From NCBI GenBank assembly GCA_903839725.1, contig CAIMDG010000002.1:65078-129077 (forward strand): a stretch of 64,000 bases of DNA, in the 5' to 3' direction. The translations under genes and the position numbers were made by a program. The first letter of the stretch is position 1. The number at the start of each line of letters is the position of its first letter. This DNA comes from an uncultured bacterium (GTDB lineage Bacteria; Patescibacteriota; Minisyncoccia; Phycocordibacterales; PALSA-1337). The notes under the pieces were generated by a model. The model saw nothing but the letters and a program-made list of their open reading frames with translations, had not been told where the DNA came from and made no database searches. Shown one piece after another: positions 5,820 to 62,492 of the stretch.

Positions 5820-7787
5820 CTAATATGGATCCTCTTCCACCTCTTTCTTTGTATCTACTTTTTCAGCACTAGAAGTCTTTTTGATATATCCCAGCAATAC
5901 GCGTGCCAAACGAATATCTCTAAATGAAACACTTGCTCCAACCTTATTTTTTACTGGAGAAAGTAATGGTGGTTTATCGTCTTGCTGAGCAAGTGAGACG
6001 GTCTCCAAAGCTTTTTCAATTTTACCAAAATGCTGTGGCGAAATTTCATATTTGAGATACGCGATGTCTGATTGCATGAGATGCTCTGTAGGATCTGATC
6101 CATCAGTAGCTATGAGATATTCGAGGTGATATATAATAGTTTCAATGACCATGTCACGCGCCTCAGCCATCTCTTTGAGATTTTTCTGTGAACGAACAAG
6201 ATTGGCAGTACGAGCAAATGTTGAGATCTTAACTGGCTTTTCTTTTTTGATACGTTTGCGTGTGGTCTTACCTGTCTTCGGATCCACATACGAGTGCATC
6301 GGTGCAACTTTACCCAAAAATGATTCATGCGCACGGATAATTTCTTTTTCATCTGTATGAGTAATGATACTTTCTGCTTTTGCAGATAATTCACGAAGAT
6401 GGTGATCGTATTCGAGCACTTCATGATTGACCTTGAGTGCATGTTGATTGAGTCCGAGAATTCGTAGGCCAGCTAACGTACGTACGCGAGACAATGCCAC
6501 ATACCCCATACCAGGCTCGAATGAACGAGACAGGTCGACTTCTATTGCATCCAAACTCATTCCCTGACTCTTGTGGACGGTGATAGCCCACGCAAGGCGT
6601 AGCGGATACTGATGTATTTCCGCCAAGACTTTACCATCATCTTCTATCTGCCACGTTGCTAATTCGATGGTTAACAATCTACCATCTGGAAAATCAGGTG
6701 TTGCCGCGGTTCGAATAACTGGATCAACTCCATATCCGCAGGAAATGATGACGCCGAGCGTTCCATTCACGTATCCTTTTTCAAAATTGTTTTTGACACA
6801 CATCACGCGTGCACCTTTTTTCAAGCGTAACTTTTCAGGTGCTAAACAGGTTTTTTTAAGAGTTTCAACGAGCGGTTTTCGTCCTCGAGAAGTCATTTCG
6901 TAGACGCATTCGTATGCCTTGACTTTACCGAGTTCACGATCGTTCACGGTGTCGACATCGATATTGTGAGTGTAGAGGCGGGTGGGTTCGATGAGGGTTT
7001 CTTCAATATTGAGATCAATTATTTCTTCAGTGTCGTCAGAGGTAACAACACCGTCGCCTCTCGAGCCGTACAATATGTCTTCGTTCTGCAAAGTCGACAT
7101 ATTGTCCAGCTCTGCAGCGACGGCTGACGTTAACTGAGAAGACGCCAGCTTGGAAACTTCTTTTTTAAACCGGCCTCTCAATAGCTCCTGGGAACGCTCG
7201 GAAACTTCTCCTGAACGGATCTCATTTAAAATAGAGAGTGAGACATCGTCACCTTGTCGATAATTTTCTGAGAGGTAACACACAGCAAATTTACCTTGTT
7301 TCCACGAATCAGCATGATAGATGAATTGTGGTCGCTGTTCACCCATTCTCGACACTGGCGGTAATTGAAAGAAGTCGCCACATAATATCATTTGTATTCC
7401 ACCAAATGGTTCGGATGATTTACGAACGCGTTTGAGCACTTGATCAACGAGGTCAAGTCGGAAATGGTGAAGCATTGAAACTTCGTCGATAATCAATACT
7501 TGAGCTTCTTCTATTTTCTTACGTACACTCGCCTTTTGACTGATAGCTTCAACGTCATCCTCTGAAAGATAGTCTTTGATACCAATTCCTGACCATGAAT
7601 GAATAGTCACTCCACCCATATGAGTCGCAGCAATACCGGTAGATGCGGTGATACCTATAGGAACCTCGTGATCTTTCAAATATCTGATGTACTGATTGAC
7701 TACGAATGTCTTACCAGATCCTGCGGGGCCTGTAATGAAGACATTTTGTCCAGCTTTAAGAATATTCAGTGCATCTTTCTGAGTCAT
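5820..7787 (-). CDS. PIF1/RecD-like ATP-dependent DNA helicase with ~200-aa C-terminal extension
   Basis: Walker A 'GPAGSGKTF' and Walker B 'IIDEVSM'. AAA_30/PIF1-like motifs through ~aa 430, then a C-terminal domain of unknown function. Confidence 0.75.
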   Translation of the reverse strand: MTQKDALNILKAGQNVFITGPAGSGKTFVVNQYIRYLKDHEVPIGITASTGIAATHMGGVTIHSWSGIGIKDYLSEDDVEAISQKASVRKKIEEAQVLIIDEVSMLHHFRLDLVDQVLKRVRKSSEPFGGIQMILCGDFFQLPPVSRMGEQRPQFIYHADSWKQGKFAVCYLSENYRQGDDVSLSILNEIRSGEVSERSQELLRGRFKKEVSKLASSQLTSAVAAELDNMSTLQNEDILYGSRGDGVVTSDDTEEIIDLNIEETLIEPTRLYTHNIDVDTVNDRELGKVKAYECVYEMTSRGRKPLVETLKKTCLAPEKLRLKKGARVMCVKNNFEKGYVNGTLGVIISCGYGVDPVIRTAATPDFPDGRLLTIELATWQIEDDGKVLAEIHQYPLRLAWAITVHKSQGMSLDAIEVDLSRSFEPGMGYVALSRVRTLAGLRILGLNQHALKVNHEVLEYDHHLRELSAKAESIITHTDEKEIIRAHESFLGKVAPMHSYVDPKTGKTTRKRIKKEKPVKISTFARTANLVRSQKNLKEMAEARDMVIETIIYHLEYLIATDGSDPTEHLMQSDIAYLKYEISPQHFGKIEKALETVSLAQQDDKPPLLSPVKNKVGASVSFRDIRLARVLLGYIKKTSSAEKVDTKKEVEEDPY

Positions 7788-8586: not shown

Positions 8587-8715
8587 CACGTCGTAGAGGA
8601 GGGGGTGCCATATTCATTTTTTGTACAAGTTTGTAAACACTGTGGTACGCGATGTAATGTAAGTGTTTCTAAACTTGTACAAAAAATGAATATGGCACCC
8701 CCTCCTCTACGCGTG
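8587..8715. repeat. Family-1 ~125-bp palindromic intergenic element, copy 1 (inverted orientation relative to copies 2 and 3)
   Basis: ~45-bp near-perfect inverted arms '...GGAGGGGGTGCCATATTCATTTTTTGTACAAGTTT' around a ~38-bp non-palindromic core. The core's reverse complement matches the cores at 48105-48142 and 53566-53602. Confidence 0.8.
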
Positions 8716-16560: not shown

Positions 16561-16578
16561 AATCTAAGTATAGCATGA

Positions 16579-16720
16579 CGAATCACAGCGGGTATGCAGT
16601 ATGTGACAGTCGAAACATCCGTGACGAACTAATATGAATGTCTGAAGAACACAATAATGTAACGATATCCCGCTGGGAATTGTTTCGACTGTCACATACT
16701 GCATACCCGCTGTGATTTCG
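16579..16720. repeat. Family-2 element copy A: conserved ~63-nt core flanked by perfect 39-bp copy-specific inverted repeats
   Basis: Arms 16579-16617 and 16681-16720 are exact reverse complements. The core '...ATATGAATGTCTGAAGAACACAATAATGTAACGATATCCCGCTGGGAAT' is homologous to the core at 35608-35679. Confidence 0.8.
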
Positions 16721-16840
16721 TAAGGTGCAGGTGAGAAGATTTTGAGGGACGTTTCGGAGCGAGTAAAGACGAGCGAGAACCAGCCGCGGAGCCAGCAGGC
16801 TCCGACGGCGTGTCCCGAGAAAATTCTCACCCGCACCTTA
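16721..16840. other. GC-rich structured element (17-bp inverted repeat enclosing an ~86-nt GC-rich segment with an internal hairpin)
   Basis: 'TAAGGTGCAGGTGAGAA' ... 'TTCTCACCCGCACCTTA' with one mismatch. Internal 'CGGAGCC-AGCA-GGCTCCG'. Confidence 0.4.
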
Positions 16841-16856
16841 CGGAACTCAAAAAATA

Positions 16857-26456: not shown

Positions 26457-28289
26457 CTATTTTCTCTTTCTTTCCTTTGCAGCTTTCATAAACTCAGTAA
26501 ACAATGGGTGTGGTGTGAGAGGTCGAGCCAAGAATTCTGGATGAAATTGTGTACCGAGGAAAAACGGATGCACTTCACGTGGCAATTCAGCAATTTCCAT
26601 AAGTGTGCCATCAGGAGACTTTCCAGAGAATACGAGACCTGCCTTCTCAAGCTTTTCAATATACTTTGGATTGACCTCGTAGCGATGACGATGACGCTCT
26701 TTGATTGTAGCTGTAGGCTTCGTCAACTTATTCAAACCAACATATGAATACGCATCTTGCGCAACTGATCCTTTCAACAATTTCGCTGGATATAAGCCCA
26801 GACGCATTGAAGCACCATACTGACCTTCAGCCAATTTCTTCTTCTGGTCAGGCATAATATCTATAACAAGGTGAGGTGCTTTTTCATCGATTTCAGCCGT
26901 ATTCGCACCATTCAAGCCAACAACATTACGAGCGTACTCGATGGTCATGAGTTGCATACCATAGCATAGGCCAAAGTATGGAATCTTGTTTTCGCGACAG
27001 TAGCGAATCACATTAAGCTTCCCTTCAATACCTGATTCTCCAAATCCCCCCGGAACTATAATTCCGTCCATACTGTCGAGTAAGGCGAAAGCAGAGTTTT
27101 CGACGGGTCGAGGACTGTCCGAGCGTAACGCTAGTGGAGCGAGTTCCGCAGACCCCGAGAAAACTGCTGCTTTCGCCTTACTCATAACTTCAAAATCACG
27201 GGAATTAATAGTGTGTATGATGGGCTTAACTTTTACGATATGACCAGAGAATTTGATAGCTTCGAGTACAGACATGTAACTATCAGAAAGAATAAAATCA
27301 CCAGTATTAAAATATTTTCCAACGATAGCAATATTGAGCGGACGATCATCATGATCTTTGATACCTCGAGCCATTTTTTTCCATTCTTGGAATGTATCAG
27401 AAGTCTTCACTGCAGGAAGTGACAATGTATCAAGTAGTATTTCTGCAAGTTTATCTTTCTCAAAATTAACGGGTACATCGTATATACTCTTAATATCTGG
27501 TGCGGATATCACACGTTCAATCGGAATATTACATGCAACGGCAATCTTCTCTTTACGACGATCATCGAGTGGTGTTGCTGCACGCGCAATAATGATATCG
27601 GTATTCACGCCATATGAAGCCAACTGATGAACTGCATTTTGCGTTGGACGTGATTTCATTTCACCGAGAGCTCCTGGAGTTGGAAGGTATGAAACCATGA
27701 TGAATACCACATCATTTGGATGACGCATCTTGAGTACACGCGCAGCTTCGATGAACATGACGTTACCGTAGTCACCAACTGTGCCACCAATCTCAATAAT
27801 TGAAATCTGCGACTTATTTATTTTTGCAGCGTGTTCAAAACGCTCAACAATATTATCGCGAATATGTGGAATAGCTTCGACACATTTACCTCCATATTTG
27901 AGTGCGCGCTCTTTTTCGATCACTTCACGGTAGACCATACCACTCGTAATATAATCATGTGGCGAAAGATCTCGTCCAAGGAATCGCTCATAATTCCCCA
28001 TATCCTGATCAGTTTCCAATCCAGAATTCAAAACAAATGCTTCACCGTGTTCCGTTGGGTTCATGGTACCTGCATCAACATTTAAATACGGATCAACTTT
28101 AACCAAATTAACCGCAAATCCTTTTGCAACCAAAATAGTACCAATCGAAGAACTGGCAATGCCCTTTCCTACACCGGACATAACACCGCCGATGACAAAA
28201 ATATATTTATGGTGGGGCTTAGAAATCGCTGGCGTTTTTTTCTTCGCTTTGAGGGGGACGACCTTGGCTCGTGTGGCCATTCGTTTCAT
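26457..28289 (-). CDS. pyrG: CTP synthase with Lys-rich N-terminal extension
   Basis: 'GGTVGDYGNVMFIEA' synthetase domain and glutamine amidotransferase 'GLCYGMQ'. About 40 extra basic residues at the N-terminus. Confidence 0.9.
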   Translation of the reverse strand: MKRMATRAKVVPLKAKKKTPAISKPHHKYIFVIGGVMSGVGKGIASSSIGTILVAKGFAVNLVKVDPYLNVDAGTMNPTEHGEAFVLNSGLETDQDMGNYERFLGRDLSPHDYITSGMVYREVIEKERALKYGGKCVEAIPHIRDNIVERFEHAAKINKSQISIIEIGGTVGDYGNVMFIEAARVLKMRHPNDVVFIMVSYLPTPGALGEMKSRPTQNAVHQLASYGVNTDIIIARAATPLDDRRKEKIAVACNIPIERVISAPDIKSIYDVPVNFEKDKLAEILLDTLSLPAVKTSDTFQEWKKMARGIKDHDDRPLNIAIVGKYFNTGDFILSDSYMSVLEAIKFSGHIVKVKPIIHTINSRDFEVMSKAKAAVFSGSAELAPLALRSDSPRPVENSAFALLDSMDGIIVPGGFGESGIEGKLNVIRYCRENKIPYFGLCYGMQLMTIEYARNVVGLNGANTAEIDEKAPHLVIDIMPDQKKKLAEGQYGASMRLGLYPAKLLKGSVAQDAYSYVGLNKLTKPTATIKERHRHRYEVNPKYIEKLEKAGLVFSGKSPDGTLMEIAELPREVHPFFLGTQFHPEFLARPLTPHPLFTEFMKAAKERKRK

Positions 28290-35558: not shown

Positions 35559-35580
35559 AAATAGATTATATAACAAAAAG

Positions 35581-35706
35581 AACACCCTCGCATGTGTATT
35601 GGTCCGCAACTCCGTGGTTATTTTAAAATATGTGTCTAAAGAAAAATGTAATGAAATAATATCCAGCTGGGAATATTACGGACCAATACACATGCGAGGG
35701 TGTTCT
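35581..35706. repeat. Family-2 element copy B: conserved core flanked by perfect 27-bp copy-specific inverted repeats
   Basis: Arms 'GAACACCCTCGCATGTGTATTGGTCCG' / 'CGGACCAATACACATGCGAGGGTGTTC'. The core '...ATATGTGTCTAAAGAAAAATGTAATGAAATAATATCCAGCTGGGAAT' matches the copy A core. Confidence 0.8.
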
Positions 35707-37501: not shown

Positions 37502-37547
37502 GTTGAAGATTGTAACAGCGAGAAGGAGGAAGGGCAAGAAGGGGGAG

Positions 37548-37642
37548 CGATGCAAATTACGAATGAACGCGAATGACGCGAATACATCGCGTCCGGATGC
37601 GACGTATTCGCGTCATTCGCATACATTTGCGGATTTGCATCG
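37548..37642. repeat. P-family palindrome copy 3 (38-bp arms, 19-bp spacer) between ligA stop and gatC start
   Basis: Left 'CGATGCAAATTACGAATGAACGCGAATGACGCGAATAC'. Right 'TATTCGCGTCATTCGCATACATTTGCGGATTTGCATCG'. Confidence 0.75.
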
Positions 37643-37658
37643 GCACCCCTTCTTGCCA

Positions 37659-39749
<2,091 letters not shown>

Positions 39750-43938: not shown

Positions 43939-44654
43939 GGATAGAATTATATCACAGTTGTTTTGACAAGGCCTACCCTTGTCGATTAAGTATATTACCC
44001 TGAACTCGAATTGTTCCTACATAATCCATGAAGCTTGAATATACATATCTTATTGAACATTCGAACGCTTCAACCGGATACTCTCTTCGTGCGTCTTTGG
44101 TCATATCTGGTTCATCAATACCGTATGGATTCAAGTGAATATATTGAATCAAGTATCTAAAATAATTATCATCACTAACATGTTTTGATTTGTATTGCCC
44201 TTGAAATATGGTCCCTGAATGATCATATTTGTGGTTAAAGTATGTCGAATAACTCGTACATATTTTATGTATAAATGTATATATACCATTCTCTACTTTC
44301 TCTTTTAATGCTAGATGGAAATGGTTTGGCATTAAACAGTATGCTTTTATGTCGACAAGGGTAGACCTTGTAAACAAAAACATATGATTTGGTTTCAATT
44401 TTTTAAAATCTAACTTATGAGTATCATTGGCAGCATATAATAAACACATAAAACGTTCATAATCACTCGTATCAAGAAATATAGGTGCTTTGTGAGCCCC
44501 TCGGTTATACACATGGTAGTATTCATTAATTATATGCATAAGTAATTCAACAGGGCGACAAAGTCTACCCTTGTTTAATTACAATATCACTAACGTATGA
44601 AGATTCTGTGAAAAAAGAATCAAAATTGAATGAAGAACAAGGGTAGGCCTTGTT
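43899..44654. repeat. Cluster of five REP-like 18-bp hairpin repeats around the RAYT gene
   Basis: Copies at 43899-43916, 43965-43983, 44354-44371 (inverted), 44557-44574 and 44637-44654 (inverted). Consensus 'GACAAGG(T/C)CTACCCTTGT' with stem ACAAGG/CCTTGT. Confidence 0.75.
43973..44539 (-). mobile_element. IS200/IS605-family Y1 transposase, REP-associated (RAYT-like)
   Basis: 'YHVYNRG' N-terminal motif, HuH 'MPNHFHLAL' and C-terminal Tyr region 'YLIQYIHLNPYG'. Flanked on both sides by REP hairpins. AT-rich. Confidence 0.7.
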
Positions 44655-48060: not shown

Positions 48061-48186
48061 CAAAACCCACAGGAGGGGTGCATACTCATTTTTTACACAA
48101 GTTTAGAGACATGTACATTACTCAGTGTACCTCAATGTTTACAAACTTGTGTAAAAAATGAGTATGCACCCCTCCTGTGGGTTTTG
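48061..48186. repeat. Family-1 palindromic intergenic element, copy 2
   Basis: Arms 'CAAAACCCACAGGAGGGGTGCATACTCATTTTTTACACAAGTTT' and its reverse complement. Core 'AGAGACATGTACATTACTCAGTGTACCTCAATGTTTAC'. Confidence 0.8.
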
Positions 48187-53522: not shown

Positions 53523-53646
53523 CAACCTCAGCGGGAGGCAGTGTACTCATTTTTCGTACAAGTTTAGAGACATGTACATTACACCGCGTACCTCAATGTT
53601 TACAAACTTGTACGAAAAATGAGTACACTGCCTCCCGCTGAGGTTG
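53523..53646. repeat. Family-1 palindromic intergenic element, copy 3
   Basis: Arms 'CAACCTCAGCGGGAGGCAGTGTACTCATTTTTCGTACAAGTTT' and its reverse complement. Core 'AGAGACATGTACATTACACCGCGTACCTCAATGTTTAC'. Confidence 0.8.
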
Positions 53647-60027: not shown

Positions 60028-60152
60028 GCTCAATATGTGGTTGATTGTTGTATTTTTGGAAAGGAACCAAAGAGAAACGGTCTTCTTTATATACCAGTAG
60101 ACCATCAATGTCAATCATCGCCCTTTTGAACAATTTCTCGTAGAATAGAGTC

Positions 60153-62492
60153 ATGAATATGTCTCCAGATATACGCGTTTCAGAATATTTCAGGCTCACG
60201 CCGATACAAAAAGACGCACTCAGAAAAATGCGTATCTCAACAGTTCATGACCTTCTCTACCATTTCCCTGTGCGTTATGGTGATACCGCCGAAACACAAA
60301 GTATCGACTCTCTCAAAAAAGGTGATACTGCCGTAATCTTCGGCAAAATTTCCGGCCTCAAAGCAAGTAAGGGATTCAAAACTAAAATGACCATGGCATC
60401 TGCCACTATCGAAGACGAAAGTGGTCGCATCCAAGCCGTCTGGTTCAATCAACCCTACATCGCCAAAATGACCCCCGAAGGAGCGTACGTCCGAATCGAG
60501 GGTAAGATAAGTCAGAGAAGAAGCAAACCTGTTAAACCTGCAGATGAGGTGAATCGTCCCCAAGAGATGATTGAAACCGACACTGCGCAGCGCGACGGCG
60601 CGAGCATAGCGCAAAGCCAGCAGGCTTTGACGCGCGTCGGTGGCAATCATTCTCTTGGGGACGATTCAAATAATCTCTACTTTTCTAACCCGAAGATCGA
60701 AGTCGTCGATAAATTACCCATCGGCGTCGGTGATTCCCTCTTCGGAGACCAATCAGAAGTTCATACCATGTACCCCGTGTATTCTGAGTCACGAGGTATC
60801 ACTTCTATTTGGATCTATCACGCCATTCAAAAACTTTTTAAATCAGGAGTTCTCGACACTATTCCTGAATGTATACCCGAACACATTCTCGAAAAATATC
60901 ATTTGCCTGGAATAAAAACGGCACTCATATGGATACACACTCCACTCAAAAATGATGATGCACTTTCTGCACGCAAACGTTTTTCATTTGATGAAATATT
61001 CACCATTCAACTCGGCAAGCAACAAGCGCGTAGAGCGTACGAGAAACATCCATCATTCAAGATCGACATTGAAATGAAACATGTCCATGAATTCGTGCGC
61101 CGTTTTCCATTCACGGCGACTGAAGCACAAACTCATGCAATCGAAGCGATCGTACACGATATGCAACGTGGTCAAGCAATGTCACGACTCCTCGAAGGTG
61201 ATGTAGGTTCAGGTAAAACAGCGGTTGCTGCCGCAGCAGCGTATGCAGTCATGACTTCAAAAGGAATCTTGTCTGAAAACCAAAATCAAGTGACTCACCT
61301 ACCACCTTCCACTCTGTTACAAATCGCATACATGTGCCCTACCGAAATTCTCGCAACGCAACACTTCGAATCATTTATCCAATATTTTTCATACATGCCT
61401 ATCCAGATCGGTCTCATCACCGGTTCAGGGTGTCGAAAATTCCCGTCAAAAATAAATCCAAAAGGTTGGACGGATATATCTCGTACACAATTATTAAAAT
61501 GGGTTGAAAATGGCGAGATCAATGTTCTTATCGGCACACACGCACTCATTCAATCATCAGTCGTATTCAAAAATATGGCGCTCGCCATCATCGATGAACA
61601 ACATCGCTTTGGAACTGCACAACGTAGAAAACTCATTCGTAAAGATTCGATTGCGCCACATTTACTCTCGATGACCGCAACTCCTATTCCTCGCACACTT
61701 GCACTCACTATGTATGGTGACCTCGATCTCACCCTTCTCGACCAAAGTCCTGCAGGTCGAAAACCCATCATCACCGAGCTCGTCATTCCTGCAAAACGAG
61801 ATGAAATGTACGCAAAAATACGCCATGAATTGGAAGCTGGTCGTCAACTCTACGTCATCTGTCCACGTATCAATGAGCCTGATCCTGATAAAGAAGCAGC
61901 TATCATTGCCAAGTCGGTCAAGGAAGAAGCCAAGCGTCTCAAAAGCCTCATCTTCCCTCAATATGAGATCGGCGTGCTTCATAGCAAAATGAAACCTGCT
62001 GAAAAAGATGCTGTTATGGCAGAGTTCAAGAATGGAACAATAGATATTCTTTGCGCAACATCAGTGGTTGAAGTTGGCGTGAATGTTCCTAATGCTACAG
62101 TCATTATTATTGAAGGAGCAGAACGATTTGGTCTTGCACAACTCCATCAGCTTCGTGGTCGTGTTCAGAGAAGTAGTCACCAAGCTTACTGCTATGCTTT
62201 CACTGAAACAACATCACAAAAATCTATTGATCGTTTGAAGTCATTACAAACTGCCAAGAATGGTTTCGAGCTCGCTGAGCTCGATCTGTCCGCACGTGGT
62301 GCAGGAGAATTGTCTGGCACGCGACAATGGGGAGTATCCGACATTGCTATGGAAGCATTACAAAATCTCAAAATGGTTGAAGCGGCTCGAACTGAAGCAA
62401 CACAACTGATAGATGAAGATCCTACATTGAAAAAATACCCACTTTTGAAACAAGCGGTTGAAGCACATAAGGTAACGAGTCATTTTGAATAA
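60153..62492 (+). CDS. recG: ATP-dependent DNA helicase RecG
   Basis: Wedge domain, Walker A 'DVGSGKT', 'DEQHRFG', 'TATPIPRTL' and 'QLRGRVQR'. Confidence 0.9.
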   Translation: MNMSPDIRVSEYFRLTPIQKDALRKMRISTVHDLLYHFPVRYGDTAETQSIDSLKKGDTAVIFGKISGLKASKGFKTKMTMASATIEDESGRIQAVWFNQPYIAKMTPEGAYVRIEGKISQRRSKPVKPADEVNRPQEMIETDTAQRDGASIAQSQQALTRVGGNHSLGDDSNNLYFSNPKIEVVDKLPIGVGDSLFGDQSEVHTMYPVYSESRGITSIWIYHAIQKLFKSGVLDTIPECIPEHILEKYHLPGIKTALIWIHTPLKNDDALSARKRFSFDEIFTIQLGKQQARRAYEKHPSFKIDIEMKHVHEFVRRFPFTATEAQTHAIEAIVHDMQRGQAMSRLLEGDVGSGKTAVAAAAAYAVMTSKGILSENQNQVTHLPPSTLLQIAYMCPTEILATQHFESFIQYFSYMPIQIGLITGSGCRKFPSKINPKGWTDISRTQLLKWVENGEINVLIGTHALIQSSVVFKNMALAIIDEQHRFGTAQRRKLIRKDSIAPHLLSMTATPIPRTLALTMYGDLDLTLLDQSPAGRKPIITELVIPAKRDEMYAKIRHELEAGRQLYVICPRINEPDPDKEAAIIAKSVKEEAKRLKSLIFPQYEIGVLHSKMKPAEKDAVMAEFKNGTIDILCATSVVEVGVNVPNATVIIIEGAERFGLAQLHQLRGRVQRSSHQAYCYAFTETTSQKSIDRLKSLQTAKNGFELAELDLSARGAGELSGTRQWGVSDIAMEALQNLKMVEAARTEATQLIDEDPTLKKYPLLKQAVEAHKVTSHFE

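Follow-up and report, generated by a model that had tools for sequence, protein, structure and literature searches.

What kind of element keeps a conserved centre inside long stems that differ from copy to copy yet remain perfectly paired? Two intergenic loci, here called family 2, raise this question in the window, which is the whole 64,000-nucleotide (64-kb) stretch of DNA analysed, from an uncultured bacterium. The initial annotation offered two answers: a structured RNA with strong covariation, or a small element that inserts into the loops of pre-existing hairpins. Both loci were confirmed in the sequence where they had been placed. Their features are as follows (L152 is a locus in a related species; no strand is given for symmetric features).

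16579–16720: family-2 copy 1, whole palindromic element in the ATPase-to-SOUL spacer (fold −78 to −80 kcal/mol, z about −12)
16581–16617: copy 1, 37-nt arm on the SOUL-promoter side, 37/37 Watson–Crick with 16681–16717
16581–16602, minus strand: copy 1, outer part of the promoter-side arm, reading ATACTGCATACCCGCTGTGATT on the minus strand
16608–16617: copy 1, inner arm AGTCGAAACA, TIR-like; partner 16681–16690; 8/10 identical to AATCAAAACA of L152
16618–16680, plus strand: copy 1, 63-nt core, asymmetric and without self-complementarity, from sequence and pairing analysis
16618–16626, plus strand: copy 1, 5´ conserved block TCCGTGACG, 9/9 identical to the L152 copy
16662–16680, plus strand: copy 1, 3´ conserved block ACGATATCCCGCTGGGAAT, which includes the mini-palindrome TCCC-GCT-GGGA; 19/19 identical to L152, 15/16 to copy 2
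16681–16717: copy 1, ATPase-side arm, whose outer 22 nt (16696–16717) are an inverted duplicate of 16581–16602
16718–16842: GC-rich family C palindrome abutting copy 1, a sister element outside family 2
35579–35706: family-2 copy 2, whole element in the spacer from gatA to the gene for a 193-aa protein
35579–35609: copy 2, promoter-side arm, 28 perfect pairs or 31 with one mismatch
35579–35591, minus strand: copy 2, outermost 13 nt of the arm facing the promoter, reading GCGAGGGTGTTCT in minus-strand direction; native, contiguous with the conserved promoter-region sequence TTTTGTTATATAAT in L143 and L148
35610–35675, plus strand: copy 2 core, with TCCGTG at 35611–35616 and ATATCCAGCTGGGAAT at 35659–35674
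35676–35706: copy 2, gatA-side arm, whose outer 13 nt (35694–35706) match the native promoter-side sequence as an inverted duplicate

The family-2 elements measure 128–142 bp and contain no credible ORF. In copy 1, 37-nt arms with 100% complementarity flank the 63-nt core; the exact pairing that was first described holds, but the length of 39 bp requires a 1-nt bulge. Perfect pairing also holds in copy 2, where the 27 bp described become 28 perfect pairs (35579–35606 with 35679–35706), or 31 nt with one C·A mismatch, around a centre of 66–72 nt with a core of 66 nt. The folding energy of the copies is about −63 to −80 kcal/mol on either strand (z about −12 versus shuffles). Both copies lie between co-directional minus-strand genes, as annotated: P-type ATPase and SOUL for copy 1, and gatA and the gene of the 193-aa (membrane) protein, which has no Pfam family, for copy 2. 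Names of proteins in public sources assign the genome to Parcubacteria/Patescibacteria.

The relatedness of the two cores was evaluated by global alignment, which scored 71 compared with 23.5 ± 6.0 for 2000 dinucleotide shuffles (z = 7.9), and none of the 2000 shuffles reached 71. The reverse-complement control gave z = 2.3. Both window cores have a 5´-edge TCCGTG, a central TGTCTnAAGAA and a 3´-edge ATATCCnGCTGGGAAT. The chance resemblance against which the initial annotation had cautioned is consequently not borne out. Each copy is present in 6–7 independent assemblies of the same species, obtained from different samples with different pipelines; these are identical except for one SNP, one contig breaks inside the core, and no variant of core orientation or arm length was observed among the 6–7 assemblies per site. 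It is extremely improbable that the similarity is accidental or that the palindromes are assembly artefacts. Three metagenome contigs do terminate at or inside palindromes (L141 at its end, L155 and L147 at their starts), but the identical sequences in independent assemblies, a core similarity of z about 8 and a third member in another species all argue against this explanation. The contig ends show that such elements fragment assemblies of these genomes, so that they will be under-represented in MAGs.

The third member occupies the orthologous ATPase-to-SOUL spacer of a related species (L151–153), in which the SOUL protein is 74% and the ATPase 86% identical in amino-acid sequence to those of the window. 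This element also has a 63-nt core and 37-nt arms, and it may be an orthologous copy or a repeated insertion at that spacer. Compared with copy 1, the L152 core is reverse-complemented relative to the flanking genes. The ends of the core are identical between copy 1 and L152 at 28 of 28 positions (9/9 in the 5´ block and 19/19 in the 3´ block), whereas the central 35 nt match at only 16 positions (46%). Fourfold-degenerate sites between the same two genomes are identical at 384 of 823 positions (47%), so that the centre is at the neutral level, and by our arithmetic 28 identical positions would arise at this level with a probability of about 0.47^28 = 7e-10. The outer 27 nt of the L152 arms cannot be aligned with copy 1, in contrast to the inner 10 nt (AATCAAAACA versus AGTCGAAACA). 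One strain-level, uncompensated A-to-G change is polymorphic in the arms of L151 and L153. The constraint is therefore confined to the stem foot and both ends of the loop, whereas drift affects the centre of the loop and also the outer stem, which retains its pairing. The description of the arms as unrelated applies to the outer 20–27 nt, which are copy-specific, but not to the innermost ~10 nt, which are homologous and alignable between copies (AGTCGAAACA, GGTCCGCAAC and AATCAAAACA).

Family 2 thus numbers two copies within the 64-kb window and one in a relative. A search with nhmmer using the three cores recovered no further copy in the window or in the loci of relatives that were examined. 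The pattern ATATCCNGCTGGGAA, with 14 specified bases, was too short for the genome collection and returned 120 matches, all by chance. Conversely, the metagenome pattern TGTCTNAAGAAN{8,32}TCCNGCTGGGAA was too strict, since the L152 core reads TGCCTAAAGG, and its 9 matches were also all by chance. Both large DNA scans thus used poorly chosen patterns, which is why the known members number only three. No family-2 match was present in viral contigs, phage records or plasmid records.

This conservation pattern bears directly on the proposal of a structured non-coding RNA. In such an RNA, the copy-specific covarying pairs would build a long closing helix that presents a conserved junction or loop, and the molecule would serve either as a cis-acting element for the flanking mRNAs or as a small RNA. 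The very stable hairpins (z about −12), the pairing kept as the sequence changes and the conserved nucleotides at the helix–loop junction are all consistent with this proposal. Four of five transition mismatches in the palindromes are G·U on the gene-sense strand, although this bias is not significant. However, the ~100 arm pairs of the three members include no G·U, and the stems end sharply. The core is flipped relative to both the genes and the direction of replication between species while its ends remain identical. The loop centre is neutral, and for neither strand did RNAalifold yield a convincing fold that is conserved within the core. In addition, the reading frames of pyrG and recG run through sister palindromes, which are translated in either orientation. 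No promoter was found in or beside the element except that of the downstream gene, and at the Rfam gathering threshold only tRNAs were detected in the window, with the best local matches (miRNA-hairpin and SNORD50 noise) at E values of 0.002–1.2 and well short of the gathering scores. A structured RNA is therefore very unlikely, and the family-2 stems behave as DNA palindromes rather than selected RNA helices.

Several more specific identities were also rejected. A box C/D (K-turn) or TIGR-like RNA, in which a C box RUGAUGA and a D box CUGA make tandem G·A pairs beside a terminal stem, is not supported, as GUGACGA in copy 1 is replaced by GUGGUUA in copy 2 and the 3´ CUGG in all copies loses the G·A pair; the SNORD50 match has an E value of 1.2, and the elements are solitary rather than arrayed. 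The hammerhead-like CUGANGA reads CUAAAG in copy 2 and L152, and the dif/Xer-like sequence ATAATGTAAC is not conserved in L152. The parS-like half-site GAAACA/TGTTTC has the wrong arrangement, and a small ORF was dismissed because of stops or lack of conservation. No promoter-like or terminator-like site was found inside the family-2 cores, and a promoter inside the core was accordingly rejected.

The idea of a small inserted element is supported by the orthologous spacers, which are empty, or contain other palindrome families, or carry the flipped family-2 copy:

ATPase-to-SOUL spacer, L157: 23 nt, empty
ATPase-to-SOUL spacer, P0123 contig: 50 nt, from gene coordinates only
ATPase-to-SOUL spacer, P0124 contig: 194 nt, from gene coordinates only
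ATPase-to-SOUL spacer, L152: family 2
ATPase-to-SOUL spacer, window: family C and family 2
ATPase-to-SOUL spacer, L154: unrelated palindrome with 31-nt arms
gatA-to-membrane-protein spacer, L148–150: 72 nt, without an element
gatA-to-membrane-protein spacer, L143–146: family C element

These differing states between relatives point to repeated colonisation of the spacers by different palindromic families.

The same comparison allows the origin of the arms to be traced. On the gene strand, the promoter-side arm of copy 2 reads TTGCGGACCAATACACATGCGAGGGTGTTCT followed by TTTTGTTATATAAT. At this site, the same TTTTGTTATATAAT is preceded by GGTATGCAGGGGTGTTCT in L143, and the corresponding position of L148 reads GCTGAGGGATGTTTTTTG. 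In register, 19 of the 31 arm positions are identical to L143 (P about 3e-4), and no complementary partner is located upstream of this sequence in L143 or L148. Judged from these alignments, the copy 2 arm on the promoter side consists of native DNA over 13 nt or more at its outer end, and the gatA-side arm must therefore carry the inverted copy. The outer arm of the L154 palindrome, GTGTGGTG, abuts the −10 motif and matches native GTGTGTG at the empty L157 site. In the promoter-side arm of copy 1, ATACTGCATA is matched 10/10 outside the palindrome in the sequence upstream of the L152 SOUL gene and also resembles L157. This case is weaker than that of copy 2, as the match covers 10 nt and its spacing to the −10 differs by 12 nt; we estimate the chance of such a shifted match at roughly 0.002–0.005. 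In all three readable cases, the native side is the promoter side.

The empty sites (the 23-nt spacer of L157 and the 72-nt spacer of L148) fold weakly and have no long perfect stem, which argues against pre-existing hairpins and for growth by inverted duplication of one flank. Under the former alternative, the ~63-nt core would be a mobile unit directed at hairpins already in place or at older palindromes, inserting at their centre or loop, and the arms would be target DNA; this is quite unlikely on the evidence. A palindromic target would lead to random orientation, and the window and L152 cores are indeed opposite. The ligase-to-gatC spacers of the window (37527–37663) and L148 (6854–6972) share the outer arms GCAAGAAGGGGTG with different centres, which fits insertion into an older palindrome, and palindromes consisting of arms only exist, such as that of P0243 in pyrG. 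Nevertheless, the native outer arm sequence of copy 2 is partnerless in L143 and L148, perfect 37-bp hairpins are not expected as natural terminators, and the P0243 palindrome retains the family-C motif GAGAAAAYT, which identifies it as a deletion derivative. Short repeats of the GCGAATA type build the palindromes at 37527–37663 and 1663–1767 of the window and at 6854–6972 of L148.

Sister palindromes in the window and its relatives provide further views of arm and centre dynamics; they are listed here together with a RAYT-like gene of the window:

8592–8711, 48061–48186 and 53523–53646 of the window, and 7929–8021 of L143: family A palindromes with 41–44-nt perfect arms
16718–16842, 27078–27183 and 60542–60676 of the window: family C palindromes, GC-rich
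27078–27183: family C copy inside pyrG (26457–28289, minus strand), in frame, forming an insert of ~35 aa in CTP synthase
60542–60676: family C palindrome inside recG (60153–62492, plus strand), in frame
43973–44539, minus strand: RAYT-like Y1_Tnp gene inside a type IV pilin cluster

In family A, the inner ~20 nt of the arms are conserved (TCATTTTTyGTACAAGTTT), the outer part is divergent yet paired, and the 38-nt loop is found in both orientations. The orthologous family C insert in the pyrG of L143 differs from that of the window in that its core is flipped and the insert as a whole is 8 codons longer. The outer arms differ between the two at 5 of 16 positions; three of these changes are fully compensated Watson–Crick substitutions and one is T·G. 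The flipping of a conserved sequence within a coding region excludes a protein-level constraint and makes an mRNA-level constraint unlikely. The P0243 pyrG insert has kept its arms and lost its core, and its retained GAGAAAAYT shows that core deletion is possible and that this is not a virgin target. In a set of 120 PyrG proteins from Paceibacterota, 44 to 94 aa separate SRDFE from LDxMDGIIVPGGFG, and this loop contains dozens of unrelated inserts, which points to a hot spot for palindromic insertions throughout the phylum. The RecG_wedge domain that Pfam recognises in RecG ends at residue 120, about 10 residues before the family C insert.

Both window copies are located next to an extended −10-like motif that lies 6–8 nt before the ATG of the downstream gene. 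The motif at copy 1 is the following, and its assignment derives from the sigma-70 consensus:

16567–16575, minus strand: extended −10-like TGCTATACT, ending 6 nt short of the ATG of SOUL (start codon 16560–16558), outside the element; conserved in L152, L154 and L157

At copy 2, the extended −10-like TGTTATATAAT lies just outside the element and is conserved in relatives. The boxes at 16567–16575, 35565–35575 and 60139–60144 are only 6–8 nt before the ATG of the SOUL, 193-aa membrane-protein and recG genes, respectively, which implies leaderless or near-leaderless mRNAs for these genes. The plus strand has a negative GC skew throughout, which shows that the minus-strand genes run with replication.

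Taken together, we favour, with about even confidence, the interpretation of family 2 as a short, non-coding insertion element from a Parcubacteria (Paceibacterota) lineage, similar to MITEs and RPEs, whose stem is grown and kept perfect by templated copying at the DNA level. Both the structured RNA and the insertion into pre-existing hairpins are less likely than this. The real unit would be ~85 bp long and consist of a ~10-bp inverted repeat (GTCGAAACA/TGTTTCGAC) around the asymmetric core of 63–66 bp, in the layout GTCGAAACA-TCCGTGACG...ACGATATCCnGCTGGGAAT-TGTTTCGAC. Only the core ends, TCCGTG(ACG) and (ACG)ATATCCnGCTGGGAAT, are constrained. This short, hairpin-ended unit would insert into short spacers of co-directional genes, just upstream of the extended −10 promoter, and the long copy-specific arms would be secondary. 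At or after insertion, 13–27 nt of one flank, probably the promoter side as in the readable cases, would be copied in inverted orientation onto the other side. The likeliest route would be fold-back or template-switch synthesis, in which the nascent strand anneals to its own short inverted repeat and copies the flank that has just been made. Templating from arm to arm would then keep the stem Watson–Crick, convert single mutations to compensated pairs and allow inversion of the centre. The conserved loop ends at the stem foot are presumably recognised by a mobilising or host protein.

Templated copying would explain the compensated substitutions, the absence of G·U, the sharp stem ends and the inverted centre. 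As the genes at the window copies run with replication, the duplicated flank of these two copies would be the side that lagging-strand fold-back copies. Process-level precedents are available: quasipalindrome template-switch mutagenesis, inverted-repeat boundary expansion and plastid hairpin-loop inversions all involve templated copying that perfects and extends inverted repeats and flips loops. Family 2 resembles quasipalindrome template switching at this level, but the latter is a general mutational process and not an element family with a conserved centre; in our model, it would act systematically on at least three families.

Several observations stand against this model. Neither a target-site duplication nor a transposase was found, and the model gives no account of how the unit moves. 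The centres of copy 1 and copy 2 are so different that they give no sign of recent transposition. Arms of the same 37-nt length in the two species would be a coincidence if they were grown independently. Furthermore, a decaying selfish copy is not expected to keep its ends identical in an orthologous position when neutral sites are saturated; the model does not explain this conservation, and it points to a constraint at the host or mechanistic level or to a protein that recognises the stem foot. This last point is shared by an alternative that we regard as unlikely, namely a host-maintained DNA site that is not currently mobile. Here, a protein would bind the bipartite motif as duplex or cruciform DNA, for example in a regulatory, insulating or replication-related role ahead of the SOUL and membrane-protein genes, and the palindrome dynamics would be incidental. 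The 28/28 core ends against a neutral centre in the orthologous copy fit such a site, whose function would be orientation-independent; the 3´ block is an operator-like near-palindrome, TCC(C/A)GCTGGGA, and both window copies are directly upstream of promoters. However, flipping brings the motif from about 100 to about 60 bp away from the promoter, closely related species do without the element at both sites, the two downstream genes share no evident functional link, and no candidate binding protein was identified.

Comparison with known systems suggests that family 2 is an unusual variant among bacterial palindromic insertion elements rather than a structured RNA gene, and that it lies outside any named family. 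Bacterial MITEs, including Correia/NEMIS, ERIC and RUP, have been reviewed (PMC10969869). Like MITEs, family 2 is small, non-coding and intergenic, has inverted-repeat ends, forms a hairpin, occurs in several copies and varies in presence between relatives (PMC10969869). Its size and copy number are also those of a MITE (below ~500 bp, non-coding, several copies). Unlike in MITEs, only ~10 bp of inverted repeat (at most ~20, imperfect) are shared, and most of the stem is copy-specific and perfect. No direct target-site duplication of the MITE type was seen by inspection at the ends of either the palindrome or the ~85-bp unit in copy 1, copy 2 and L152, where the flanks are inverted. Neither a parent IS nor a cognate transposase was found in the 64-kb window and about 200 kb of relatives, the sole transposase being the RAYT with its different repeat. 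The earlier view of family 2 as the reverse of a MITE is weakened by the conserved ~10-bp inverted repeat beside the core, and the long copy-specific portion of the stem looks secondary.

RPEs are palindromic elements in Rickettsia genes, reportedly described by Ogata and colleagues in 2000. As in the RPE case (PMC10969869), several palindromic families of ~100–150 bp occur in a reduced genome, and sister family C is inserted in frame in pyrG and recG. Family 2 itself has neither a whole-length palindromic consensus nor an in-frame gene insertion: RPE copies are alignable over their whole length, whereas in family 2 the arms can be aligned over no more than 10 nt, identity in the centre is no higher than neutral and all three copies are intergenic. 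We know of no RPE with flank-derived arms or centre flipping.

REP/REPIN sequences, which are associated with RAYT (Y1) proteins, are likewise hairpin-forming extragenic repeats, and the window contains a RAYT-like Y1_Tnp gene. REP stems are conserved, whereas those of family 2 vary and have no conserved stem of the GTAG type. Mobilisation by the window RAYT was rejected, as this gene has its own unrelated 17-nt REP, ACAAGGGTAGRCCTTGT. These REP-like palindromes are found around the gene at ~43915, 43985, 44370, 44575 and 44650, with one inside the RAYT-like gene itself and one within the start of the next pilin gene; relatives have a Y1_Tnp gene at the same place. IS1397/ISKpn1 and IS110-family elements insert into REP sequences and are thereby precedents for a mobile core that targets existing hairpins. 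Integron attC sites and HUH-Rep stem-loop origins also conserve pairing while the stem sequence varies, and are recognised as a folded single strand with conserved unpaired bases. They differ in that attC sites conserve the outer ends and reside in cassette arrays, HUH-Rep origins have 9–13-nt loops, and neither an integrase nor a Rep gene is associated with family 2. Literature searches brought up no previous account of elements of this kind from Patescibacteria or Parcubacteria.

More speculatively, and in our estimation rather unlikely, the long arms could be the signature of an undescribed insertion mechanism in at least three palindromic families of Paceibacterota. A hairpin-ended unit would then insert through a single-stranded or fold-back intermediate and leave a 15–27-bp inverted duplication of the target flank instead of a direct target-site duplication, with the stem-foot bases serving as the site of a structure-specific enzyme.

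If confirmed, templated copying would mean that short palindromic elements in reduced CPR genomes are not merely decaying, but that local DNA serves to rebuild their stems, which are kept perfect and flipped. It would also mean that covariation arising at the DNA level mimics structured RNA and can mislead RNA-gene discovery. The strict conservation of the loop ends points to a putative protein partner of family 2. The same class of elements remodels essential proteins through in-frame inserts in the PyrG loop and the RecG wedge domain, and family 2 would, if the model is confirmed, provide a natural system for the growth and maintenance of palindromes in bacteria.
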